DNA of 64,000 nucleotides from positions 64,001 through 128,000 of the forward strand of contig CBDCWC010000003.1 of assembly GCA_965223295.1 (NCBI GenBank). The letters run 5' to 3'. The translations under genes were made by a program, and so were the position numbers. Shown one piece after another: positions 27,046-44,961 of this stretch. The notes under the pieces are model-generated. The model was not told where the DNA came from, did no database searches, and was given only the letters and a program-made list of their open reading frames with translations. Within the stretch, counting starts at the first letter, position 1. The number at the start of each line of letters is the position of its first letter. The stretch is from Nitrospirales bacterium. GTDB taxonomy: Bacteria > Nitrospirota > Nitrospiria > Nitrospirales > UBA8639.

Positions 27046-27858
27046 TCAGGGATTGGGACCGATCGGATAGTTCGTTGGAAGGTCAGGAATAATAGCATCT
27101 TCCCCAAACCCACAAACTGGATGCCCGAAACCTCCGGCGCTCACCGTATGTCCAGTGGTTAGATCAACAGTAGTGTCTAAAATCATATTATCATCATTGG
27201 TAGGAGAGACCCCGACCGGCACATGATCCAAACCAAGAGCATCGCGCACTTTCCATGCTACAATGTGGTCCGTACAAGACGTGTCTCCGCTCACTCCGAG
27301 CCCTCCTAACGCAGCCCCATTGCTACCATACAGAGTCAGCCCACCGCCGAACACGTTGACACCACCTATCTTCCTCCCCCTCATAGGATCATTCCGTTTT
27401 CCATAATTTTGGGAAGGCCCTTTGTAAGCGACTTGTGTGTCAACAGGGTTGCTGAGTTGCAAACCGAATAGCGAGCCGCCTGGTTGTACCGCTGAATAGA
27501 GATTAGCGGTTGACAATGAAAGTCCAGGTAAAACTCCTATACTTCCGGCAGGAAGGCTAAAGGCATTGGCAGTGTTCGCTTTTTGAGCAGAAATCACACG
27601 ACTTCCAGGCCATTGATCTCCACGATCTGCACCGGACTTCGCAATCTGACAGACAATCCCATCCCGATCCACAATGGCACCCCACATGTCATTGGCAAGC
27701 CCGCCGTTGCCTCCGGCAGCTACAACAGATTGAAGAGCTGCAGTGAGTGCGGCATGAGACGGGAGATCCTCACAGTCCCTGCTATGAGCTTCAGCAACAT
27801 TACCTGCCAACACGCCTGTCATGACGAAAATCGCAACTAACAGATTCGTTGCCTTCAT
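27046..27858 (-). CDS. Secreted GlcG/HbpS-family heme-binding protein
   Basis: Signal peptide; AIVDRDG, ISAQKANTANAF, VFGGGL and GGLGVSGDTSCTDH motifs. Confidence 0.85.
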   Translation of the reverse strand: MKATNLLVAIFVMTGVLAGNVAEAHSRDCEDLPSHAALTAALQSVVAAGGNGGLANDMWGAIVDRDGIVCQIAKSGADRGDQWPGSRVISAQKANTANAFSLPAGSIGVLPGLSLSTANLYSAVQPGGSLFGLQLSNPVDTQVAYKGPSQNYGKRNDPMRGRKIGGVNVFGGGLTLYGSNGAALGGLGVSGDTSCTDHIVAWKVRDALGLDHVPVGVSPTNDDNMILDTTVDLTTGHTVSAGGFGHPVCGFGEDAIIPDLPTNYPIGPNP

Positions 27859-30841: not shown

Positions 30842-31052
30842 AGGATTGCTGAATAACTACCTTCTCCATGGGCAAACAAGCCCACAGTACCCTTGAACAT
30901 GAAAAGCTTCGGGTCGGTTCAAAAAAGTCCGCTCGCCTGCGCGAAGCCAGGTCCAGCAAGACGACAACCAAACTCAGGCGCAGAGCGTACCGTTCGTACG
31001 TGAGCACCGGAACTTGGTGAGTACGCCGCTGGCGGCTTTTTTCAACAGACCC
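30842..31052 (+). mobile_element. MITE family 1, copy E, upstream of secA
   Basis: Inner core GGGTCGGTTCAAAAAAG ... TTCAACAGACCC at 30911-31052; degenerate outer end AGGAT-TGCTGAATAA at 30842. Target duplication unclear. Confidence 0.7.
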
Positions 31053-31098
31053 GGTAGGGATTGTTGGCTGGAAAGCTTTCTGCTCTCTTGAATGTTCT

Positions 31099-31434: not shown

Positions 31435-32061
31435 ATGCCTATTGATAATTGCTTCATGATGTCGCCCAGGAACATCGATCGATATCAATGCAAATTTTTT
31501 TCTCCGGCATTCATGTTTATGAGCGTCTGTCTACTTCCCATACTGGCCATAGCCCAAGACATGCCCCCCCAGGAAGAAGACGAAATCGAAATGCTTGAGG
31601 TCATCGAGATTACGGGAACCGTTGTGGAGGATACTCCTCGAAACATGATCTTCCCCACTCCACAAATCCCAGCCCAGCTTCATATCATGGTGACGGATCA
31701 ACTGGCACTTCCCAAATTTGAATTGATCAAGCCATTTGAAAAACCATCGACGATCTTGTTGGATGAAACTGCCAAGAACCGCAATATCCATACGCCTGTT
31801 AAGCCATTAAAAACTGATCATCCTCCTTTTCCCAGACGCGCACGAGAACAGGGCTGGCATGGACGAGTGATCTTACGCTTGGCTATTTCGTCTCAAGGCC
31901 AAGTACAATCAGCCAATATTCACCAAAGTTCTGGACACCCGCTCTTGGATGACAGTGCCGTCAAGGCTGCCACCCAATGGCAGTTTCAACCTGCGAAAAA
32001 CGGCGCCTTTCCTGTGGCTTCTATTGTCAATATTCCCATTCAATTTGATTTAGTGAAGTAA
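31435..32061 (+). CDS. TonB C-terminal domain protein with probable cleavable signal peptide (start uncertain)
   Basis: PPFPRRAREQGWHGRV...SSGHPLLD..A..W.F.PA TonB_C motif; LLPILAIA-QD resembles a signal peptidase site. Confidence 0.85.
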   Translation: MPIDNCFMMSPRNIDRYQCKFFSPAFMFMSVCLLPILAIAQDMPPQEEDEIEMLEVIEITGTVVEDTPRNMIFPTPQIPAQLHIMVTDQLALPKFELIKPFEKPSTILLDETAKNRNIHTPVKPLKTDHPPFPRRAREQGWHGRVILRLAISSQGQVQSANIHQSSGHPLLDDSAVKAATQWQFQPAKNGAFPVASIVNIPIQFDLVK

Positions 32062-32094
32062 TTGGCCTACAAGAGACCTAAAAGGACTGAATAT

Positions 32095-33141
32095 ATGAAT
32101 CACCTTCGATATTCGTATTTCATGATATGCTCGGTCATCGTGCTATGCCTCAGCCCTCCACTATATAGCCATGCTGGAGAGGCGCAGGACCTCCTCGCTC
32201 AAGCTCATTCGACCTACAAAGAACAGCAATGGGCTTCGGCGAAATCTCCCTTGGAACGCGCCATTGCGCTTTATCCTCAATATGCCGAAGCCCATCATCT
32301 TTTGGGTCTCGTGTTGACGAAACTTGATCAACCTAAACTGGCTATTGCCTCGCTACAACAAGCGGTCGAGGCCTATCCCGCCTTTGCTCAAGCCTATATG
32401 GATTTAGGGTTTGCGTTTCAGGATCAAGGACAATTCGAAGACGCCGAGCAGGCATTCCGACAAGCCTCTATTATTTACCCCACGTACCTGGAAAGTTGGA
32501 CGGCGCTGGCCACACTCTTTGATCAACAACAAGACGCTTCCAAGGCCATCCAGGCTCATCAAAAAGTTTTAGAAATCGATCCGCATCATGCTGACTCACT
32601 GTACGGATTAGCCTATTGGTTCGTCCGTGAAGGAAATCCCCAAAAGGCACAGCCATATGTGGAGCAGCTCACGACCCAAGATCCCAAACATGTAAATGGA
32701 TGGCTTATTACAGGGTCATTGGCACAGCAAACCAATCAGACTGAAAAAGCTATTTCGGCCTATCAACGAGTCGTGGCTCTCCAGCAACAACTTGTTGAGC
32801 CATACTTTAATTTGGGCATCTTATACCAACAACAAGAACAGCATACCGAAGCCGCCGAAGCGTTTAAGAATGTGCTTCGCCTGGACAAGAACAATCCAGA
32901 AGCCCATATCAACTTAGGTGTGGTCTACACGGCGCTTTCCAAACTGTCAGAGGCAGAGGAACACTATCAGGCCGCCTTAGCCCTCAATCCTCAATTGTCA
33001 GAAGTCCATTACAACCTGGGATTACTGTATGAGTTTCATCATAATGCGCCTCAAAAGGCGCTGGAATACTACAAGGAATATGTCAAACTCGGGGGACAGG
33101 ATGAACGAATTACCAAACTTCTCACACGAGTCGGGTCGTGA
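32095..33141 (+). CDS. Exported tetratricopeptide-repeat protein
   Basis: Multiple AEAH/YxNLG TPR units; signal peptide; AAAGGA RBS before ATG 32095. Confidence 0.9.
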   Translation: MNHLRYSYFMICSVIVLCLSPPLYSHAGEAQDLLAQAHSTYKEQQWASAKSPLERAIALYPQYAEAHHLLGLVLTKLDQPKLAIASLQQAVEAYPAFAQAYMDLGFAFQDQGQFEDAEQAFRQASIIYPTYLESWTALATLFDQQQDASKAIQAHQKVLEIDPHHADSLYGLAYWFVREGNPQKAQPYVEQLTTQDPKHVNGWLITGSLAQQTNQTEKAISAYQRVVALQQQLVEPYFNLGILYQQQEQHTEAAEAFKNVLRLDKNNPEAHINLGVVYTALSKLSEAEEHYQAALALNPQLSEVHYNLGLLYEFHHNAPQKALEYYKEYVKLGGQDERITKLLTRVGS

Positions 33142-34031
33142 CAACCACGTTTCCTGAGCAGCATGCAGATACCCGTATCTTGGCGCTGAGTGCATTGGGC
33201 AGTCTTGCACTACATGGGTTCATCATCTTTGGTTTGGCCAATATCCCGAAAGTGGCAGCCGTGAAGGATGATCCTCCAACTGTTACCGTAACCTTATTAC
33301 CAACATCAGAAGTTTCTCCGACACCACCAACCTCTGAACCAGTCGTTCAGCCCCGCACGGCGATGCCAAAGACACAATCTCTCCCTACTCCTCACTCGCC
33401 ACCACAACGATCTCATCCTGTGCTACCGCCCATGCAAGCTACATTGACCCCGTCGCTGCCCAAAACACCGGCTCCATTACCACCCCCAACCCTGACAAAA
33501 CCGATTTTGAAAGATACGCGGGCATCACAAGCCATGAAAGCCAGAAACCTAATGAAAATGCGAGTGCCCTCTCAAACTCAACAAGCGGCACCTTCCTTGC
33601 TGAAAGTGAATCCTCGCACAGACTCAACACCGCATCTCTTCGCGCCAATACCGAGGGTGCAAGAAAAGCGTACAAACACTCCCTCTCTTCCTGCGCTACC
33701 CGCATTCACAACACCGAAAACCCTCGCCCCCCCGTCACCGGCGCAAGCCGCACCCGGCATGACTCGGCCAACAATCATTTCATCATCCAAGCCCGTATAC
33801 CCACGGGTGGCCAGAGAGTCTGGATGGGAGGGCACCGTCATTGTCCGAACCCTGATCAATACACATGGAGTGCCCAGTCAGGTCAAAATCCAAAAAAGTT
33901 GTGGGTATCCTACGCTGGATCAAGCAGCGCAAGAGGCCGTCTCGACCTGGACCTTTCAACCTGCCAAAGACGGGAACATCCCCATCACCAAGTGGGTTGA
34001 TATTCCCATTAAGTTTAATCTCAAGAGTTAA
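33138..34031 (+). CDS. tonB: Energy transducer TonB
   Basis: Transmembrane SLALH (SxxxH) motif, Pro-rich linker and YPRVARESGWEGTV TonB_C domain. Confidence 0.92.
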   Translation: MTTTFPEQHADTRILALSALGSLALHGFIIFGLANIPKVAAVKDDPPTVTVTLLPTSEVSPTPPTSEPVVQPRTAMPKTQSLPTPHSPPQRSHPVLPPMQATLTPSLPKTPAPLPPPTLTKPILKDTRASQAMKARNLMKMRVPSQTQQAAPSLLKVNPRTDSTPHLFAPIPRVQEKRTNTPSLPALPAFTTPKTLAPPSPAQAAPGMTRPTIISSSKPVYPRVARESGWEGTVIVRTLINTHGVPSQVKIQKSCGYPTLDQAAQEAVSTWTFQPAKDGNIPITKWVDIPIKFNLKS

Positions 34032-34057
34032 TAAACCGATCGAGAGAAAGATACAAC

Positions 34058-34669
34058 GTGGGATTTCTCAACATGCTGATGAGCGGCGGCTGGATGATGA
34101 TTCCGATCATGGCCTGTTCTGTCCTAGCCCTAACAATTAGCATTGAACGGTTGATCTATTTCAAGAAATTTCAATCAAGCCGGCTTGCGCCCAAAATGCT
34201 CGCATTGACCGAACAAGAGAAATTTACGGATGCCTTGGCTCTTGCCGAACAACACCCTAGCCCTACTCTGAGGGTGATTGCCAGCGGGATCCAGCAACGC
34301 ACCAACTTTCCTAGTAAAGCCATGGAAGCCTCAGGCATCGTCGAACTCACCAAGATGAAACGAGGCCTCCCTATCTTGGATACCGTGATTACCCTTGGAC
34401 CACTTCTAGGCTTGCTTGGAACCATCATCGGAATGATTGATTCATTCGGACTCATGTCCGAATCTGGCTTGGGCAACCCGCATGCTGTCACCGGCGGCGT
34501 TGCAGAGGCATTAATTTGCACGGCCGCCGGAATTATTGTGGCCGTCACCACGTTAATTCCCTACAATTTTTTTCTGGCGCGCGTAGAGCAAGAAACTGAA
34601 AACATTGAACATTACGCAACTAAGACCGAGGCCGCGCTCCAACGCGAAAGCCATCGAGCGAGACCATGA
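34058..34669 (+). CDS. exbB: ExbB/TolQ/MotA proton channel subunit
   Basis: PLLGLLGTIIGMI and GGVAEALICTAAG motifs. Confidence 0.93.
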   Translation: MGFLNMLMSGGWMMIPIMACSVLALTISIERLIYFKKFQSSRLAPKMLALTEQEKFTDALALAEQHPSPTLRVIASGIQQRTNFPSKAMEASGIVELTKMKRGLPILDTVITLGPLLGLLGTIIGMIDSFGLMSESGLGNPHAVTGGVAEALICTAAGIIVAVTTLIPYNFFLARVEQETENIEHYATKTEAALQRESHRARP

Positions 34670-35076
34670 AACTTTCTGCTGCTGTCAAAAAGAAACCGCG
34701 GATTGAGATCATTCCCATGATCGACACGATGTTTTTTTTGCTTGTCTTTTTCATGATTGCCACACTATCAATGACCATACAACATGGTATGCCTGTGAAT
34801 CTTCCTGAAGCCAGCTCCACAACCGACGACGTGAAGGAGCCGGTTTCGTTGACCATTACAGAAAATGGAGACTTGTTTTACAACAAAGAAATGATTACGA
34901 TTCAGGAGCTTCAAACAAGGCTCACAGGGCTTATCCAAAAAAATCCGGAGCCAACGATTGTGATCAATGCAGATGAACAGGTAACGCACGGCTTGGTCGT
35001 GACTGTTATGGATAAATTCCGACTGAGCGGCATTCAGCACATGGCGATTGCCACAAAACCTGAAGCCACACAATGA
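34666..35076 (+). CDS. exbD: Biopolymer transport protein ExbD
   Basis: IIPMIDTMFFLLVFFMI and INADEQV motifs. Confidence 0.93.
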   Translation: MKLSAAVKKKPRIEIIPMIDTMFFLLVFFMIATLSMTIQHGMPVNLPEASSTTDDVKEPVSLTITENGDLFYNKEMITIQELQTRLTGLIQKNPEPTIVINADEQVTHGLVVTVMDKFRLSGIQHMAIATKPEATQ

Positions 35077-35417
35077 GAATGTCTTCAAAAATGAGTCACA
35101 TACGGTCAGGGGGGATCTTTCTCTCTTCTCTGTATGTATTTCTCCTGGGCGCCGCATCATTTTGCATGTTCGCCCATTCCACTCCTCTGAACGAAGAAAG
35201 CCACCATACCCAACACACTGCGACCCATTCCACGTTATGTACCTGGGCTTGTCAGGTCAGTTCCTCTCCTTCAAACGGGCAGGTTGCCTCAACGCCTGAG
35301 ACAAAGCCAGATTTGTTGCTTATTGCTCTTCTTCCAAACTTTTCTAGCATTCCACTTCCGTATGAGATCGCTTCTGCTCCATCTCGCGCCCCACCTCGGG
35401 TATTCCTTTCTCTGTAG
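35073..35417 (+). CDS. DUF2946/CruR-like small exported protein with RAPP arrest motif (copy 1)
   Basis: Hydrophobic N-terminus, HHTQHTATH, CTWAC and C-terminal SRAPP. ATGA overlap with exbD. Confidence 0.72.
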   Translation: MRMSSKMSHIRSGGIFLSSLYVFLLGAASFCMFAHSTPLNEESHHTQHTATHSTLCTWACQVSSSPSNGQVASTPETKPDLLLIALLPNFSSIPLPYEIASAPSRAPPRVFLSL

Positions 35418-35616
35418 TTCCTGACTCACATTATTCGAATGTTGGTAGCGGGCTCGTTTTTCGAAAGATTGAAGAGCTTGTTTCTCATGTAGACATTTAT
35501 CTGACCCAGCAGCTTTCCCTCTGCAGGTCATGAAAATTTTCCTACCGAAACTTCGAATCAACGTGATTTCTTATGTCTTGCATGTCTTATTTCGTATTGA
35601 GAGGAGGACAGTCATC

Positions 35617-35823
35617 ATGGATCAACAATTATTACGCGTCGGCGAAGCCGCACGGGAATTAAACGTGAGTCGGTGGACTATTTACCGTTGGGTAGATGAA
35701 GGGCGACTCAAAGCCACGAAAATCGGAAAAGGAAGCTTACGAATTTTTGGGGAATCCGTCACGACTCTTGTGCAAGCAAACCGCAAAGACTGCTGGGAAC
35801 CTGTTCTCACACAAACACGATAA
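35617..35823 (+). CDS. Xis/excisionase-type HTH DNA-binding protein (HTH_17)
   Basis: LLRVGEAARELNVSRWTIYRWVDEGRLKA; GAGGAGG RBS. Confidence 0.9.
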   Translation: MDQQLLRVGEAARELNVSRWTIYRWVDEGRLKATKIGKGSLRIFGESVTTLVQANRKDCWEPVLTQTR

Positions 35824-35914
35824 TTTCCCGACCAAAGTGTTGTATGTGACGGCATCTATCGGTAGCAAAAGATGCACCAAAAACCTATGATGTTTTAGAT
35901 TGGGTTGTTTATCA

Positions 35915-36265
35915 ATGTCCATCAAATTTGTGATGAGAATTCCATCTCTTCAAAAATTTTTTGTGATCGGGTTAGGACTATGGCTTCTTATCATGAGTGC
36001 TGTTTTAGCCTATCCGATCACAAGTCATGCTATTGATCACCAGCACACGCCGCACAACCATTCCCAAACATGGTGTGACTGGATGTGTAAGGCCAGTCAT
36101 GTAATTCACACACCATCTGTTGTTCTGGCAGAATCATCTTACGTTCTCACATCAAGGTTTCTCTCCTATTCAATCCATCACCTTTCCTCTCTCCTTTTCT
36201 CACCAGACTCTCGTGCTCCTCCAGCGATGCCTCTCTCCTCATCGACCTTACACATATCTGATTGA
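35915..36265 (+). CDS. DUF2946/CruR-like small exported protein with RAPP arrest motif (copy 2; start uncertain)
   Basis: Signal-like N-terminus, HAIDHQHTPHNH, CDWMC and C-terminal SRAPP. Confidence 0.72.
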   Translation: MSIKFVMRIPSLQKFFVIGLGLWLLIMSAVLAYPITSHAIDHQHTPHNHSQTWCDWMCKASHVIHTPSVVLAESSYVLTSRFLSYSIHHLSSLLFSPDSRAPPAMPLSSSTLHISD

Positions 36266-36326
36266 AGGGTCTAGCTCAAAGTGTCTGGCTGACTTCGGAT
36301 GCGATTTGAGAGCAATCAGACAAAGA

Positions 36327-36514
36327 AGGACTGTTGAATAATCTAATTTCAAGTTACGAACACGCTTCCAGTGCAGTGGAGGGTTCGATGCGACGGGAAT
36401 GGTCAAAAAAGTCCGCCCCCCTGCGCGAAGCCGCTTTCAGCCTTCGTAGCCACTTCGGCGAAGGAAGCCCGGCGAAGGCAGGGAACGCCGGTGGCGGATT
36501 TTTTCAACATTCCC
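36327..36514 (+). mobile_element. MITE family 1, copy F
   Basis: AGGAC-TGTTGAA ... TTCAACA-TTCCC with exact direct repeat AAAGA at 36322-36326 and 36515-36519. Confidence 0.85.
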
Positions 36515-36577
36515 AAAGACACAATACCCGGTGCAAGAGACGCCTGCTCGTTCATGACTTTGGAGGAGGTTGCAAAC

Positions 36578-37327
36578 ATGCTTCTCACTCAAGCCATCAT
36601 TCGACATTGGATACCGATATCTTTCTTTGTTCTCGCGAATCTATTCAGCATATCTGTCCTCACTTTTTCAGTGCATGCCGAGCATGTACTGGCCCTTCGA
36701 TTAGCCGCGACCCCATTGAATCGCAGCATGTGTGGCATATCGAATGAACATTCCTCTATTCGTATTCTTGCAGCCAAGCATAGAGATCTGTTTCTCCAAA
36801 AAGTTCCTGGCCAACACCGTCCCAAGAATAACCAGGACGCCAGAAAAAAAGACTATGTACACTTTGTCACGATAGCTGACCTCACTGGCGGCCAAATACC
36901 CAATGGCGCCATTGCATTTGACGACCGCCATGCCGTGATCTTTGATGACACACACCCCAAAGGTCTCGCGCGACCAAGATTTTTGTCTCAACTTACTGAC
37001 CATCAACGTCTCATAGCCGAATTGGCATTGAATACTTTTTTGCGCCTCCATCAGGTGTTCAATGCTGCCATTGATACCTGTCGACCCCATCCTGCCTTTT
37101 CGGACTATGAAAATGATGATGATGTGTTACGAATTGAAAAAGGGAAGCGGACATTCAAAAATCTTGTTCAACAATACAACAGCCACCCTTCTTTCCCTCA
37201 AAACACCTCACTTCATGAGCCAGGAACCATAGGAGGATTTGTTGATCCTCATGCAGGCAAAAAATCATATTCGGACTATCAAGCGATGAATCCATTGAAT
37301 TTTTACGTCCCCACGTCGCTTCGTTAA
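36578..37327 (+). CDS. Hypothetical exported protein
   Basis: GGAGGAGG RBS before ATG 36578; signal peptide ending SVHA. The ORF-track extension upstream runs through a MITE. Confidence 0.7.
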   Translation: MLLTQAIIRHWIPISFFVLANLFSISVLTFSVHAEHVLALRLAATPLNRSMCGISNEHSSIRILAAKHRDLFLQKVPGQHRPKNNQDARKKDYVHFVTIADLTGGQIPNGAIAFDDRHAVIFDDTHPKGLARPRFLSQLTDHQRLIAELALNTFLRLHQVFNAAIDTCRPHPAFSDYENDDDVLRIEKGKRTFKNLVQQYNSHPSFPQNTSLHEPGTIGGFVDPHAGKKSYSDYQAMNPLNFYVPTSLR

Positions 37328-37508
37328 CACTGGCAGGTATGATTCGTATAAGAAAGCCGTAGCATATGTATGTAAACTTAGGTAGACAGACTTATAGCAT
37401 CCACCCTATGCTGTGAGAGAAAACTGGACAGACGAACTCCATTAAAGGGGACCATCGTCTCTCTGTATACTCACAGGGTTTCAATACAATACTAGGAGGT
37501 TGCGGTTC

Positions 37509-38057
37509 ATGAAAAAGTTTGTTTGGCTAACTGTCATGTTGGTGTTCATGGGGTGTGCGTCAACATCAATGGCTCCGAGTACACAATCAGGCAAAATGCC
37601 TCAGGATGGGGAATTAGTATTTCCCAAAAATTACAAAACGTTCTCAACATTTTTACACGGCATCCAAAAACCTAATGCTGTCCGTGATCTTTATATCAAC
37701 AACATAGGAGCCCAAGCACATCATGGCGAATCCTTTGCCAACGGATCTATCCTAGTCATGGAAATCTACAATGCTAAGAAAGGCCCCGGCGATACGTTAC
37801 AAAAAGACGGTCAAGGGAATCTGATAAAGGATGGTCTTGCGAAAGTCTATGTCATGCAAAAAGGCAAGGGCTGGGGCCAACAAGCACCACAAGGTTTAAG
37901 AAATGGAGATTGGATCTACTCGGCATTCAAGCCCAATGGGGATCGATTAGATGTTGATTATACAACATGCCGTGGCTGTCACATGCCATTAGGTGACGCC
38001 AAGGATTATGTGCATCACTACGACGAATATTTCGAAAAACGAGTACATATGCATTAA
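37509..38057 (+). CDS. Cytochrome P460/c'-beta family lipoprotein
   Basis: Lipobox-like FMGC, FPKNYK, FANGSILVME, NGDWIYSAF and C-terminal CRGCH heme motif. Confidence 0.85.
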   Translation: MKKFVWLTVMLVFMGCASTSMAPSTQSGKMPQDGELVFPKNYKTFSTFLHGIQKPNAVRDLYINNIGAQAHHGESFANGSILVMEIYNAKKGPGDTLQKDGQGNLIKDGLAKVYVMQKGKGWGQQAPQGLRNGDWIYSAFKPNGDRLDVDYTTCRGCHMPLGDAKDYVHHYDEYFEKRVHMH

Positions 38058-39664: not shown

Positions 39665-40486
39665 CTATTTTTTTGCTGGCCAAAACCCCCTGATAGGTAA
39701 ATATTCATCAATCTCATGGGCAGCGGGAGACACCTCCACACCAAATCCCTCACCACAGTTCGCCGGCAGTGGATTGTTTTCTAAGTCACGGATCACGGTA
39801 ATTTGAGGCCAAAACCCTTCGGCCACAATCGTTGGATCGTCAAAGGCAGGCGTGAGATTGGCCATCCAAACATCCGCACGATCAGCACCCTTCTTTGAAT
39901 GCGTGCAGTAATTCGCAATAGCAATATTAATTTGAAGTTTGGCGATACACGACGTTTCTTGAAATTGAGGATAGGACGCTCTCCAAGGAACAAGCCCCAC
40001 CAACTCTGGATCTAATTTTCCTTTAGTGTACCGAAACGCCCGGACATCTGAACTGACCGTGTTTCCTCGAGACACATAGGGAGCGACAGAACCTTCCACA
40101 CGTCTAATTTTTCGGAATACGTTGTGATCCTGCACAGGGCGGGCACCCATAATAGGATTCCCTTTGATATGACTGCCCAAAGCCACGTCTTCACCAGTAT
40201 CCATGCGCTTTGCCACGGTAGAACTCCCATTCGGGAATACGGCACTCATCGCTCGAATAGCTGTCCCATTGCATCCATGCGGAACACTGAATGAATTCAC
40301 GACGCTGCTAGCTCCTTCTAATTCGACCCGTTCAGCAAATGCATTTGGCGTATTTTTGGGAAGGACTGTCGTGTGAGGATTAGCCAACACATCACTCAGA
40401 CCCACACCAGGCCCCACTATGAGTCCACCCAATATCAAACCCATCACCATTTCTTTTCGCAAGCTCAATTGATGCCCCCTCTTCAT
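39665..40486 (-). CDS. Exported protein with YcnI/DUF1775-like N-terminus
   Basis: Signal peptide, HTTV.P and FSVPHGC motifs; AAGGAGG RBS. Family assignment is tentative. Confidence 0.6.
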   Translation of the reverse strand: MKRGHQLSLRKEMVMGLILGGLIVGPGVGLSDVLANPHTTVLPKNTPNAFAERVELEGASSVVNSFSVPHGCNGTAIRAMSAVFPNGSSTVAKRMDTGEDVALGSHIKGNPIMGARPVQDHNVFRKIRRVEGSVAPYVSRGNTVSSDVRAFRYTKGKLDPELVGLVPWRASYPQFQETSCIAKLQINIAIANYCTHSKKGADRADVWMANLTPAFDDPTIVAEGFWPQITVIRDLENNPLPANCGEGFGVEVSPAAHEIDEYLPIRGFWPAKK

Positions 40487-40886
40487 AGATCCCCTCCTTA
40501 CAATAAGATAAACACGTGAATTGCGGTTGATAAAAACGCTGGAAATGAGACGTTTTCTTCAGAAAAAAACAGGAGAGTCCAATGTATCGATACACCAGGA
40601 GAATTTCTACTGATGCATATCAAAAGATACTACAGTTTGCTACATCTCGTTCTTCAATTTTTACAGTCAATGTTTCAAAAATAAAAAATATGCCATTCCC
40701 AAAGCGCCATTATAAGCATAAAATTTGGCCATTTTTCCCTCAATTCACCGAAGGAGAATGAGACTTGTTGCATCCATAAGCAAGTATGTCTAGACAAATT
40801 TTTACCTTTTTCGATAACTTGAAAAAATCGCGACTCTACAAGCACCTGAGGCATAGGGCCGCCAACATCACTCGACACCAGAACAA

Positions 40887-40971: not shown

Positions 40972-41137
40972 ATTCCACTACTGAAACGTAAAGGCTTCGT
41001 CCATCAAGACCGCATAACTGATTTGCATACGGATTGTTCTCAAGTTTTCCCACCCAATTTTCTTTCCACCCTCGTTCTTGATAATCTGCCTATACTCTAT
41101 TTTCTTCCCCTTTCACTCCATCCGGCTGGAGGTCTGC

Positions 41138-42196
41138 ATGAATGCAGTTTGTCCATCTTTCGACATTGGTCCACTCATTCGTCTTGTCACCGTATTACTT
41201 TCATTTTGTGTTGGTTCCTGGCCCCTAACAGGATTCGCTCACCCAGCAGGAGACTTTTACCACCAAGCGGTCGAAGCCATTCAGACTCAGAATCTTCAAG
41301 AGGCTGAATCTTTACTTCATAAGGCCATTTCTGAATTCCCCGCCTATGCCAAGGCTCATCATCTACTGGGACTGGTGCACTACCAGCTTACACAGGACCC
41401 TCATACCGCAATTTCTTCACTTCAACAGGCTGTTCACTTCAATTCCAACTTTGCTCAAGCCCACCATGACTTGGGTCTACTATTGTTAAAAGAAAAAAAG
41501 ATGGGAGAAGCACAACAAGCGCTTCAACAAGCCTTGACCCTGTACCCAAAATTTTGGGAAGCCCGGCTCACATTAGCCAAAACCTTAGACCAAACCGGAG
41601 CAACAGACAAAGCTCTGGAAGAATATGAAACCGTCTTGGACCAAGAGCCTTCCTCCACGGAGGCACTATTTCATTTGGCCTATCATCTTATGCAAAGGAA
41701 TCAACACAACCAGGCTCATGCTCTCCTTACCCGTCTGACAACCCATGACCCACAACATGCTGAAGGCTGGCATTTACTCGGCCGTCTTTTCGAGCAGACC
41801 CAGCAAATCGATCAAGCCACTGATGCCTACCGGCACGTTTTGAAGAACAACCCAGAGCATGCCGAAGCCCATTACAATTTGGGGTTTCTCTATCAACAAG
41901 ACAATGAAACGCAAAAAGCTATTGCGCACTTTCAGCAAGTGGTGCAATTAACACCCACAGATGCTGAAGCCTATTTTAATTTGGGTGTACTCTTTGTCTC
42001 AGAAAAGCAGTTGGATCAGGCAGAGGTCGCCTATCAGAAAGGCCTAGAATTACAGCCAGAATCCATGGAGGGGCAATTCAATATGGGAGCTTTTTATGAA
42101 TTTCATAAAGAAGATCTGCAAAAGGCCAAACATCATTATAAAAAATATCTAGAACTGGGCGGCACTGATACACGCATTCAAAAACTCATGAAGTAA
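41138..42196 (+). CDS. Exported TPR protein, paralog of 32095-33141
   Basis: TPR units; shared YAxAHHLLGLV and YEFH...Y..LGGxDxRIxKL; GGAGG RBS. Confidence 0.9.
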   Translation: MNAVCPSFDIGPLIRLVTVLLSFCVGSWPLTGFAHPAGDFYHQAVEAIQTQNLQEAESLLHKAISEFPAYAKAHHLLGLVHYQLTQDPHTAISSLQQAVHFNSNFAQAHHDLGLLLLKEKKMGEAQQALQQALTLYPKFWEARLTLAKTLDQTGATDKALEEYETVLDQEPSSTEALFHLAYHLMQRNQHNQAHALLTRLTTHDPQHAEGWHLLGRLFEQTQQIDQATDAYRHVLKNNPEHAEAHYNLGFLYQQDNETQKAIAHFQQVVQLTPTDAEAYFNLGVLFVSEKQLDQAEVAYQKGLELQPESMEGQFNMGAFYEFHKEDLQKAKHHYKKYLELGGTDTRIQKLMK

Positions 42197-42290: not shown

Positions 42291-44390
42291 CTAGAAACTA
42301 AATTCTGTTGAAAAAATAGCATTGATGCCAGGAGCATTGATGCCCGATCCATGTTCCTGATAAGGCTGATCTAATATATTCAGGAGTGAAAGTCTAGCAA
42401 TCACGCCTGATCCAAAGTCATAACTTGAACGAAAATTCAGTGTGACCCAACCTGGAGTGCCATCAGGGTCGATCCGAGAATCGGACTGATCGCGGGGACT
42501 GAGACGGTCTTGTCGATTCGCAAATCGCACGAATGATTCCAACCGAAGTTTTGGTGTGAATTGATACGCTGCCCCAAATCGGCCATAGAGTGGAGAAATG
42601 CGATCAGCTGGGTTGGTCCGACCTCCACTAACGGTTTCCTTGCCCCAGGTAAAAGTAAGATTCCCAAAGACTTCCCCTTGTTCATGCCATAGCCATCGAA
42701 CACCCGTTTCAAATCCTAAAAGTGCCACTGCATTCACATTGGCATTTTGGACCACGACTCTCCCGTCATTGGTTATGGCCCCAGTAGGCACGGATTCAAT
42801 TTTATCCTCAATGTTGATGAGAAACCCAATCAATTCCCCCGAAAATTTTGGTGTTTCCCATTTGATGCCCGAGTCAACGCTCCATGCCTTTTCGGGCCCT
42901 AAATTCGTATTTGGAACATTGAACCGATTCCCTGGTCTCGCTCCTAAGGTTGAGAGGTCAAAAATATTTGGAGTGCGAATGGCTCTCCCAAAATTGGCAA
43001 CCAAATTTACAGACTTTGTCAAATGAAAAATTGTCCCCACATCCCCTGTAAATTCAGAGACCGACAAGTGCGTCCCAACAGAACGATCGGCTCTGGGTAC
43101 ATCAATATCGACATAACTCCAACGACCTCCCACTGTGACCTCCCATAGGGAAGAAAGTTGTACGGTCGTTTGTAGGTACACAGCTCCACTCGTGATCGAT
43201 GAATGATTGGCAAACCGGCTGGACACAGAGACAGTGTCCCCTGTGACCACATTTTGGCGTAGACGACGACTTCGTACTTCATCCCGGAGGACTTGAACGC
43301 CGTATTGAAACATTGCATACTCTTTCCAGTGGGAGAGCACTTTCAAATTAAACTCTAACAAGCGATCGCGATTTTCCTCTCGATCAACTTCAAGGCTGTC
43401 AAAATCGCGAATCTGCCGATCGTCGTTGATTTCTTGGAAACTCAGGTTAGCTTCAAGCCGATCAAAGAAAAAAGAATTCAGATTGTGGAGGTAGCGACCA
43501 TGAATAAACAGGCGGTTATTGGGTTTAAAAAAAAACTCAGAAGCACTGGGCTGCTCTTGCCCAAAGCCAGCATGTAATTGGTCAAAACGCGGAGTCTTCG
43601 GTTGTTCAAGGAATTGGACGTTTAGTAAAAAGTTTTGGTATTCGTCACCAATGAAGATTTTTCCATCTCCGGCAAAAGCATTAAAAGCAGAAGGACGTTG
43701 GTGACCGATATCACCCCCTCCCCGAACATCTTCATGGCCTTGATACGTAAATCCTCCACTTAGGCCTAGTCCTTCATAGCCGCCCTTTAGAGCTAATCGA
43801 GTCATCCGTGATAAATCCGCACTGCGAAACCCGCCATGAAGCGTTCCATCCCACGTCCAATTCGTTGTCTGAAAACGGGGGATGGGGGTCTGCACATTTA
43901 CCACTCCACCTATGGCTCCATTGCCATAGAGAGTAGGACTCGCTCCTCGGATCAAGTCAATCTGGTCTACGTTATGTGGATCTATTAAGGCAAAGTATTG
44001 GTTGGGAGCTGATCGAAAAATGGCATTATTCAAGCGCATGCCATCAACGAGCATCACAGTTGAACTGCCCAACAACCCTCGAAGAATCGGTGTTCCCTGT
44101 CCAGGTGTGGTTTCTTGAATGAACACCCCTGTTTCCCCACGAAGGGCATCAGAAAGAGTGTGTGGAGCTCGTTCTTTGATGATTTCCTTCTCGATCACGC
44201 TTTTTGCGGAAGAGACTTCAAACCAGGTTGGCTTTCCTTCTTTGGCCGATACCGTAACTACATCTAATTGCTCCACGCCGTCTTCTTGAAGAGGGATCTC
44301 CTGTGTTTCATGAGGATAATTTTTCCCTGATACCAAACTAGGTAAGGCTAATATTGAAACAAGGAAGATAAAGAGTAGAACACTTTTCAT
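42291..44390 (-). CDS. TonB-dependent outer membrane receptor (start may be 44480)
   Basis: TonB box LDVVTVSA, plug motifs ILRGL...VDGMRLN and RGASPTLYGNGAIGGVVN, LGPEK, C-terminal Phe. Confidence 0.95.
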   Translation of the reverse strand: MKSVLLFIFLVSILALPSLVSGKNYPHETQEIPLQEDGVEQLDVVTVSAKEGKPTWFEVSSAKSVIEKEIIKERAPHTLSDALRGETGVFIQETTPGQGTPILRGLLGSSTVMLVDGMRLNNAIFRSAPNQYFALIDPHNVDQIDLIRGASPTLYGNGAIGGVVNVQTPIPRFQTTNWTWDGTLHGGFRSADLSRMTRLALKGGYEGLGLSGGFTYQGHEDVRGGGDIGHQRPSAFNAFAGDGKIFIGDEYQNFLLNVQFLEQPKTPRFDQLHAGFGQEQPSASEFFFKPNNRLFIHGRYLHNLNSFFFDRLEANLSFQEINDDRQIRDFDSLEVDREENRDRLLEFNLKVLSHWKEYAMFQYGVQVLRDEVRSRRLRQNVVTGDTVSVSSRFANHSSITSGAVYLQTTVQLSSLWEVTVGGRWSYVDIDVPRADRSVGTHLSVSEFTGDVGTIFHLTKSVNLVANFGRAIRTPNIFDLSTLGARPGNRFNVPNTNLGPEKAWSVDSGIKWETPKFSGELIGFLINIEDKIESVPTGAITNDGRVVVQNANVNAVALLGFETGVRWLWHEQGEVFGNLTFTWGKETVSGGRTNPADRISPLYGRFGAAYQFTPKLRLESFVRFANRQDRLSPRDQSDSRIDPDGTPGWVTLNFRSSYDFGSGVIARLSLLNILDQPYQEHGSGINAPGINAIFSTEFSF

Positions 44391-44961
44391 GGGAAAGGAA
44401 GACCCGTAACTTCTCCAGGAATTTATCAGGGTTTCTTTGAGAAACGTCCTGAAGGGGAGAAAGTGCAGAGCCAACGACATTCGTGAAATGGCCTTGAGAC
44501 GATTTTGCGTAGTTATGGCCTAAGGGTAGCCATGGAGACTCTTGACACTCTTCGACAGACTGCAGAAGGAAACTTCAGACGAGATGATCAGTGAGCGGGG
44601 AATTTCCCGTGAGCACTGAAAAACCCTTCAAGGGGTACAACGATATAGTTCGGGGTTCGAAAAGAGGAATTGAATGGCTTCTCCTCAAGAGGAAATTTTT
44701 CTTATTTCTATGGGGATCTTCACGGAAACAGACGAAAATTCCTATAGATTCAAAAAAACCATTTACAAACAACAACTTGTACAAGCTCACTTGGAACGCG
44801 TGAAGGCAAAACTATGTATATATCTAACGCCTTTAAAATAAAGGATAATTTTCGTTTTGCGAGACTTTTTGTCCATTTGCATGAACAAACCCTAAAGGGA
44901 AGGAGAGTCTTTCGAGGCTAGTGGTAGAGTCCCGATTCAGCAAAAAGGCCCTTTAAAGTTC

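Follow-up and report, generated by a model that had tools for sequence, protein, structure and literature searches.

Organisation of the locus

The window, that is, the whole stretch of DNA analysed here, comprises 64,000 nt from a Nitrospirales bacterium (GCA_965223295.1, contig CBDCWC010000003.1, positions 64,001-128,000, forward strand). It contains a tonB-exbBD operon followed by two short peptides with a RAPP motif near the C-terminus, hereafter leader 1 and leader 2, which flank the gene of a small helix-turn-helix (HTH) protein. The genes listed by a first-pass annotation of this locus are all present on the + strand, in the order it gave; they are listed here together with the gap and the predicted operator-promoter found between them:

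31435..32061, + strand: TonB_C-domain protein (PF03544, E 7.6e-23), divergent from secA and first in the operon; its exact start is uncertain
32095..33141, + strand: TPR protein with a hydrophobic N-terminus (TPR family matches)
33138..34031, + strand: TonB with a Pro-rich linker (PF03544, E 1.8e-22)
34058..34669, + strand: ExbB (PF01618, E 6.2e-28)
34666..35076, + strand: ExbD (PF02472, E 3.5e-31)
35073..35417, + strand: leader 1 (peptide 1, proposed first tier), with a hydrophobic segment, a His cluster, CTWAC at 35238-35252 and RAPP at 35385-35396
35418..35616, + strand: 199-nt gap separating leader 1, with its C-rich, G-poor end, from the HTH gene; candidate Rho loading region
35617..35823, + strand: HTH gene, encoding a 68-aa Xis/BldC-type winged HTH without a sensor domain (HTH_17, E 5.1e-11; TIGR01764); candidate activator
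35838..35891, + strand: predicted operator-promoter 1, heading leader 2, with three 10-bp direct repeats at 35838-35867, -35 TAGCAA at 35863-35868 and -10 TATGAT at 35886-35891
35933..36265, + strand: leader 2 (peptide 2, proposed second tier), with CDWMC at 36074-36088 and RAPP at 36212-36223; weak DUF2607 match (E 0.026)
36578..37327, + strand: exported protein of unknown family (36578 gene), with two Cys invariant in the alignment of homologs

The 36578 protein has 102 homologs, of which the named ones all belong to Nitrospirales or Nitrospirota, and it gave no Pfam or NCBIfam match. Assigning a function from its fold was attempted and abandoned: the model is of good quality (pLDDT, the predicted local distance difference test, 83), but no Foldseek match at E 0.001 or better was obtained and further comparisons were weak (best VIA Z 3.8; Atlas rows at most 0.77). 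Between leader 2 and the 36578 gene, a palindromic repeat at 36385-36520 widens the gap. It has 101 BLAST matches in the genome and a similar stretch near 30920-31060, and it is probably a repetitive extragenic palindrome (REP) or a miniature inverted-repeat transposable element (MITE) unconnected with the circuit proposed below.

The leaders belong to a conserved family

The two leaders (110-114 aa) exhibit the common layout noticed at first pass: CTWAC, CDWMC and both RAPP motifs translate as described, with RAPP 6 and 13 residues before the stop. The second cysteine is separated from the arginine of RAPP by 44 residues in leader 1 and by 41 residues in leader 2. The export signal that had been assigned to them is supported by hydropathy, the property on which it was judged, with an N-terminal 15-residue segment of Kyte-Doolittle value at least 1.8 in 46 of 47 leaders. 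As only 13 of the 26,536 six-frame open reading frames (ORFs) of at least 40 aa in the genome carry R[AG]PP in their last 25 residues, the peptides are not chance ORFs.

A family profile built from 47 sequences picks exactly four peptides in the genome (E 1e-22 to 1e-16; next match 0.088), two of which are the window leaders, and it retrieved 531 representatives at 50% identity. Among the best 150 of these 531 matches, CxWxC is present in 150 and R[AGS]PP in 147, so the conservation across relatives that had been proposed as a check is observed; the Cys pair lies 41-44 residues from R[AGS]PP in all 147 motif-bearing leaders. CxWxC was also present in 55 of the 56 leaders of the first set, which had been chosen by the RAPP motif, so that only its CxWxC and spacing are informative.

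The suggested relationship with DUF2946 (PF11162) is only partly borne out by profile scores: leader 1 matches with E 0.11 and 13.7 bits, under the cut-off of 23.7, and leader 2 does not match. Matches at E <=1 were obtained for 16 of the 47 family leaders, and two of the 47 reach the cut-off (29.2 and 23.7 bits), one of them sitting directly before an HTH gene. Judged from layout and profile scores, the window peptides are a divergent Nitrospirales branch of the CruR/CutF (DUF2946-like) kind of leader, and the leaders themselves are new members of an already known kind. The CxxxC spacing, initially regarded as unusual, is the motif of CutF itself, where it lies about 45 aa from the Pro motif (PMC9973294; here and below, published systems are described from the accessible parts of the cited sources).

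The other two leaders of the genome head different units. One (G000:C3:1489394-1489696, - strand; L001) precedes a 385-aa protein with no Pfam family and a carboxypeptidase-regulatory-like protein; this type of unit also occurs at L037-L039 and holds the top leader match in three small-genome relatives without the HTH. The other (G000:C3:1231363-1231686, - strand; L002) exhibits a single Cys (CTWVE) and a long His run, lies before a porin-like gene and ZnuA/ABC-3 with no operator, and is a candidate zinc- or manganese-sensing variant. A second leader subfamily exhibits CxxC, HLH, CxHG and W[AG]C, then GR[GS]PP, and precedes siderophore-type receptors and PepSY genes (L046, L048, L049, L051-L053, L055, L056, L064 and L075). 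It stands nearly always behind the candidate operator described below, and none of the four members scanned has a Pfam match.

The locus is a reduced form of a leader island

In a sample of the phylum, the leader family is present in 30 of 121 genomes, nearly all within the order Nitrospirales, and homologs of peptide 1 occur in 29 of 41 related genomes, frequently several inside 20 kb. Across the order, a cluster divergent from secA comprises leaders before TonB receptors, porin-like genes and TlpA-like proteins, together with the HTH gene and a homolog of the 36578 gene, and up to six leaders lie within 20 kb of the island (L006). Other genes of the Nitrospirales islands encode di-haem CCP/MauG, SMBP, HMA, heavy-metal P-type ATPase, PepSY_TM and AhpC-TSA proteins. 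Head leaders in relatives exhibit TTGACA-17-TAnnnT promoters, as read by eye.

The window island is a reduced version, without the head leader and without the leader-receptor pair between exbB and exbD. Since its two leaders are a remnant of a larger leader island, they are no special pair, and the two copies in series lose the unusual character first ascribed to them. Nor is leader 2 simply in series with leader 1, as it has its own predicted promoter (35838..35891). The coupling of leader 1 to exbD is present in the window, where its start overlaps the end of exbD by ATGA, but it does not hold as a rule: it is possible in 3 of 17 junctions, most of which show a gap of 12-20 nt.

A Xis/BldC-type HTH gene follows the leaders

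The HTH protein comprises HTH_17 only, with no dimerisation or effector domain, and its recognition region is near-invariant among homologs. The top Foldseek rows for its model (pLDDT 84) are Xis 4J2N (E 1.2e-3, TM target 0.81) and BldC 6AMA (E 5.1e-3, TM target 0.83), with no row at E 0.001 or better, and the profile match to 4J2N (Pukovnik Xis) has E 1e-5. According to the model, the protein has the Xis/BldC fold. With regard to a role as excisionase, no integrase was seen among the neighbours scanned, in which no search was aimed at integrases, and the locus lies beside secA across the order.

We counted 48 distinct HTH copies in the fetched loci, skipping short unlabelled antisense ORFs. 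A leader is present upstream in the co-oriented run for 42 of them, directly in 27 cases and two to four genes before the HTH gene in 15; four of the remaining copies run to the locus edge and two lack a leader. At L078 and L079 (G027), HTH copies end gene runs for cytochrome c and FMN-binding proteins, with no leader recognised upstream. At L082:8247-8621 (G191), an in-frame fusion joins the N-terminal half of leader 1 to the HTH, and the CxWxC-RAPP part is missing; this reflects a natural loss of gating or else an error in the assembly. The G191 genome has an unusual size of 16 Mb. The gene after leader 1 does encode an HTH, as first reported, but a DNA-binding protein in this place is less unusual than was then thought, as arrest peptides precede extracytoplasmic function (ECF) sigma genes in S. 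lividans (PMC12992588).

A triple repeat forms candidate operator-promoters

Downstream of many HTH genes, we found the motif TGTWGYA-N3-RTNRGYA-N3-RTCNGTAGAC. This element of 30 bp comprises three 10-bp direct repeats, in which G-Y-A recurs every 10 bp (at 4-6, 14-16 and 24-26), and some sites exhibit a fourth repeat. The last repeat leads into the -35-like hexamer TAGACA, which corresponds to a weakened sigma70 -35; the consensus TT is present in 1 of 130 sites. A matrix search gave 53 sites in about 744 kb of loci, compared with none in one shuffle. At 125 of 135 sites a TA is located 17-18 nt after the TAGACA hexamer, a position outside the searched motif, and the same spacing is observed in 104 of the 108 new sites among the GTDB-scan matches listed.

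The window holds four candidate operator sites: operator-promoter 1, given above, and three further ones, which are listed here with the neighbouring genes:

37358..37412, + strand: predicted operator-promoter 2, with repeats, -35 TAGACA at 37383-37388 and -10 TATGCT at 37407-37412
37509..38057, + strand: cytochrome P460-family protein (PF16694, E 6.7e-18), predicted regulon member
39665..40486, - strand: 273-aa exported protein, predicted regulon member, with a YcnI/DUF1775-like lead (DUF1775, E 0.085; Atlas row 0.89, a lead only)
40581..40644, - strand: predicted operator-promoter 4, with four repeats (element at 40634), -35 TAGAAA and -10 TACATT, heading the 273-aa gene
40766..40820, + strand: predicted operator-promoter 3, with -35 TAGACA and -10 TAACTT, heading a TPR gene at 41078-42196

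In relatives, the element heads many TonB-receptor, PEP-CTERM and metal-binding genes. A leader is the headed gene at 58 of the 134 sites counted, a P460 homolog at 12 and a PEP-CTERM cluster member at 12, while 3 face a gene on the opposite strand and 4 lie at a locus edge. Homologs of the 273-aa protein occur in candidate-operator-headed units of a second phylum, which is described below. Elsewhere in the genome, a site at C2:816037 is antisense inside a long gene and was taken as chance.

A four-repeat site on C2, at C2:996197, heads a PEP-CTERM protein gene (G000:C2:996357-997025, + strand). This protein exhibits a His right after the apparent signal peptide, a start that is absent in the other six PEP-CTERM-like proteins found by regular expression in the genome (one further match is of another kind). 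In relatives, a His start is likewise seen in several PEP-CTERM proteins of operator regions; it could possibly be a His-brace copper site.

The window island is flanked by a TonB-dependent receptor (42291-44480, - strand), which scores best with haem-receptor models, and by an HbpS-like haem protein (27046-27858, - strand). The candidate operator was not detected upstream of either gene.

The HTH and the element occur together

Among 111 Nitrospirales genomes, the strict motif is present in 48 and the HTH in 48; 47 have both, one has the motif only, one the HTH only and 62 have neither. The counts here and for the second phylum below keep G191, whose strict-pattern matches resemble low-complexity repeats, and G169 and G325, whose single matches are at the control rate. 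G169 has one motif match and no HTH. The distribution is patchy within genera, as in g2, with 15 genomes having both and 9 neither. In leader-bearing genomes without the HTH (e.g. G025, G040, G089 and G095), the strict motif is absent.

The 132 loci among the GTDB-scan matches listed include 80 with a title, of which 79 are Nitrospira-related, N. defluvii among them, and one is a Methylomirabilis metagenome-assembled genome. In the phylum of G228 (Methylomirabilis-type), the HTH is present in 8 of 151 genomes, and the motif in those 8 and one more. The order CopD-HTH-candidate operator-leader-exbB recurs in Methylomirabilis-type loci. Inspection of five loci from this phylum showed a leader directly before the HTH in three, and leader-gene-CopC-CopD-HTH in a fourth. 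The HTH follows CopC and CopD there; the RAPP leaders of three of the five loci were found by regular expression, and two of these three have a single Cys. CopC, CopD, cupredoxin and SMBP are encoded beside the circuit, with a resistance-nodulation-division (RND) efflux set upstream.

In verrucomicrobial records (Verrucomicrobium sp. 3C and Methylacidiphilaceae; P0375, P0376, P0378 and L235), the HTH forms the N-terminal part of an in-frame fusion with a TonB-receptor-like protein. At L235, the fusion is preceded by a CxxC/Pro-rich ORF unlike the family leaders, with no RAPP and a longer Cys-to-Pro distance; the 5.9-kb contig holds no candidate operator site.

Proposed gating of the HTH gene and proposed circuit

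The genome carries a rho gene, as identified by a family search. The last 120 nt of leader 1 have a C-G skew of 0.34, a value reached by 2.4% of 1441 long genome ORFs, and leader 2 has a skew of 0.61. Leader ends in general exhibit a skew of 0.30 (n=154) compared with -0.02 (n=424), and at their 4-fold third positions C/(C+G) is 0.60 versus 0.49. The gaps between leader and HTH gene have a median of 238 nt (n=26) and measure 169-372 nt in 25 of 26 cases. Pairing of the leader end with the ribosome-binding site (RBS) of the HTH gene, as in CutF, seemed common (13 of 26 junctions), yet it is not above shuffled controls: in junctions with gaps of at most 320 nt, the mean is 5.7 bp compared with 6.4 bp in shuffles, and 7 of 21 exceed the shuffled mean. 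As the leader ends are C-rich and G-poor, the gaps long and the pairing not above shuffles, termination of the CruR type is favoured.

What is observed comprises the parts and how far they are conserved, the geometry of the promoters and the co-occurrence; from this we infer the following circuit. The tonB-exbBD operon would be transcribed into leader 1, whose nascent chain would be exported while the ribosome stalls at RAPP. When the metal is scarce, the stall would persist and cover the C-rich Rho loading region, so that transcription proceeds into the HTH gene; binding of the metal to the His cluster and CxWxC would relieve the stall, and Rho would terminate transcription, following CruR-type logic. 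By analogy, a stall would turn the next gene on under either known mechanism (CruR or CutF). The uptake-heavy target list favours relief of the stall by metal over its promotion. The sensorless HTH would then bind head-to-tail on the three or four 10-bp repeats that run into the weak -35 and activate these promoters. A further leader stands at the start of many targets, the 36578 gene among them; these would need both the activator and a stall, which is a coherent feed-forward arrangement. In several relatives, the HTH's own leader carries a candidate operator, which would provide positive feedback.

The cascade proposed at first pass, in which stalling controls a regulator and an exported effector, therefore retains its core: the leader-HTH link is conserved, and the candidate operator tracks the HTH and heads the promoter of peptide 2. 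The features that had been called unusual carry less weight. We somewhat favour, over its negation, a two-tier metal-starvation circuit, most likely for copper, in which a leader stall gates the HTH, the HTH activates a regulon and some targets are gated again.

Nature of the signal and alternative explanations

Di-haem peroxidases are induced by copper starvation in methanotrophs, and YcnI and SMBP bind copper. The presence of CopC, CopD, cupredoxin, SMBP, HMA, di-haem CCP/MauG, a heavy-metal ATPase and the weak YcnI-like lead probably points to copper as the metal.

Several observations weigh against the proposed circuit or its parts. A single-Cys leader of the genome stands before the ZnuA/ABC-3 operon, so the leader family is not uniformly copper-related, and both window leaders score below the DUF2946 gathering cut-off. 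None of the island TonB receptors scanned is of the OprC type, the best scores being with PqqU-like or siderophore receptors. TlpA/ResA-like proteins follow many of the leaders, and the island also holds VKOR and DsbA-like genes, which fits redox sensing as well. The C-richness of the leader ends stems partly from amino-acid content, and a clear head promoter was not found in the window. At the candidate promoters, the full TAnnnT is present in 82 of 135 sites and, among the GTDB matches listed, in 40 of 108. In G186 the HTH is present without a site at one mismatch, and in G122 a one-mismatch site is present without the HTH. The HTH and the element share one island, so that linkage accounts for part of their co-occurrence, and genomes that are related do not count as independent. 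Finally, characterised BldC-type proteins are frequently repressors (PMC5859096, PMC12266134).

The same wiring could answer another signal or have the opposite sign, with zinc, nickel, cobalt or the periplasmic thiol-disulfide state being sensed, or with metal promoting the stall as in CutF, so that the regulon answers metal excess. The leader-headed ZnuA/ABC-3 operon, the recurrence of TlpA/ResA, VKOR and DsbA-like genes, the RND efflux set in the second phylum, the heavy-metal ATPase in Nitrospira islands and the copper-dependent stall of CutF, itself a known CxxxC leader, would all fit. However, the leader- or operator-headed genes are mostly of the uptake type (TonB receptors, ExbBD, PepSY_TM, CopC/CopD), the long gaps and C-rich ends are CruR-like, and the lack of pairing above shuffles argues against a CutF-type hairpin; we regard this explanation as rather unlikely, though a serious contender. 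The sign of control at the promoters might also differ. Fixed spacing and a non-consensus -35 are the signature of activator-dependent promoters, and repressor sites usually vary in position; here, more than 100 promoters keep a fixed distance from the repeats to -35 and -10, and a consensus -35 hardly ever occurs. A negative or incoherent loop, in which the HTH binds the repeats and represses or only bends DNA, is unlikely. In its favour are the overlap of the third repeat with the -35 box and two known repressors, BldC, which acts on whiI from -50 to -80, and D29 Gp36 (PMC5859096, PMC12266134).

The 30-bp element could also be read by an alternative sigma, a chromosomal regulator or some other factor, with the HTH as a co-travelling island member. 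Co-occurrence within one island cannot tell binder from passenger, two genomes are discordant (G122 and G186), and positions 0-6 and 23-27 of the element could pass for an ECF-like -35/-10 pair. Nevertheless, a sigma70-type -10 lies further downstream at a fixed distance, the middle and sometimes a fourth repeat hold the 10-bp period, leader-bearing genomes without the HTH also lack the strict motif, and the HTH-element pairing recurs in a second phylum, which makes this explanation quite improbable. Still less credible is a role of the leaders as secretion monitors like SecM or ApdP, through which Sec capacity would be gauged and envelope genes adjusted, with Cys and His residues that are incidental. 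It is suggested by the position of the island next to secA across the order and by the fact that RAPP leaders are known as Sec monitors, but secA is divergent and not downstream of any leader: among 107 leader ORFs, not one has a co-oriented secA as the next gene, a single one adjoins secA on the other strand, and for 7 the next ORF carries no label. Moreover, CxWxC and the distance from it to RAPP hardly vary, and metal and envelope genes lie downstream.

Significance

Copper supply can limit nitrification and methane oxidation. We found no description of the HTH, the operator or the Nitrospirales leader family in the literature, in which subscription journals were thinly covered, and the supplements of PMC9973294 (5,334 proteins) and PMC12992588 may list leaders; a copper-starvation regulator for Nitrospirales was likewise not found. 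In the same literature, a leader-gated, sensorless Xis/BldC-type regulator with a readable regulon was not found in print. Whether the circuit favoured here amounts to a copper-starvation master circuit, as yet undescribed, of nitrite-oxidising and comammox Nitrospirales is, in our estimate, evenly balanced. It would be shared with Methylomirabilis-type and possibly verrucomicrobial methanotrophs; its transcription factor would be sensorless, sensing would be performed wholly by nascent arrest peptides that gate the activator and then the targets, and the regulon would be readable genome-wide from the triple repeat.

The outcome is a concrete regulator, an operator consensus and a list of targets, including many uncharacterised exported proteins. 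As Nitrospirales are without genetic tools (PMC10579370), it matters that regulator, operator and targets are testable in vitro or in E. coli. Operator-headed transcripts could mark metal limitation in treatment plants and seawater.

Comparison with known systems

The S. lividans peptides SLIV_33595 and SLIV_33605 (RAPP/RGPP, before ECF sigma genes; PMC12992588) also place an arrest peptide upstream of a transcription regulator. They differ in having four transmembrane segments and in that the regulator is a sigma factor, and the accessible text assigns no signal or regulon to them.

BldC of Streptomyces and the mycobacteriophage Xis/Gp36 proteins are, like the HTH described here, stand-alone MerR-like winged HTHs of about 68 aa with the same fold (PMC5859096, PMC12266134). 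Xis and BldC bind direct repeats head-to-tail, with cognate sites of variable repeat number (PMC5859096, PMC12266134). In contrast, the HTH shares only about 27-30% identity with them, its predicted sites lie at a fixed place relative to the -35 box, and the accessible parts of these sources mention no link of BldC or Xis to metals or arrest peptides.

CutF of Rhodobacter capsulatus (PMC9973294; bioRxiv 10.1101/2025.02.05.636593) resembles the leaders in CxxxC, the export signal and a distance of about 45 residues to a C-terminal Pro motif. That motif is poly-Pro, a stem-loop covers the cutO RBS and copper promotes the stall, whereas the leaders carry RAPP/RGPP, are followed by gaps of about 200 nt and show no specific pairing with the RBS.

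In CruR of Bordetella pertussis, RAPP comes 45 residues after CxxC, the gaps are long and termination depends on Rho (PMC9426467); this leader stalls at RAPP in vitro (PMC12992588). CruR (DUF2946, PF11162; PMC9426467) shares with the leaders the export signal, the Cys pair, RAPP near the C-terminus at a fixed distance, the long gap and the C-rich end, as well as neighbours such as TonB receptors, PepSY_TM, AhpC-TSA and CopC. The leaders differ by CxWxC instead of CxxC, by 41-44 instead of 45 residues and by window copies below the Pfam cut-off; in addition, leader 1 comes sixth in its operon, an island holds up to six leaders and the gene presumably gated is a transcription factor. CruR and CutF each control one operon in cis (PMC9426467, PMC9973294). 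If the circuit proposed here is correct, a leader would instead control a trans-acting activator, and hence a regulon rather than a single cis operon.

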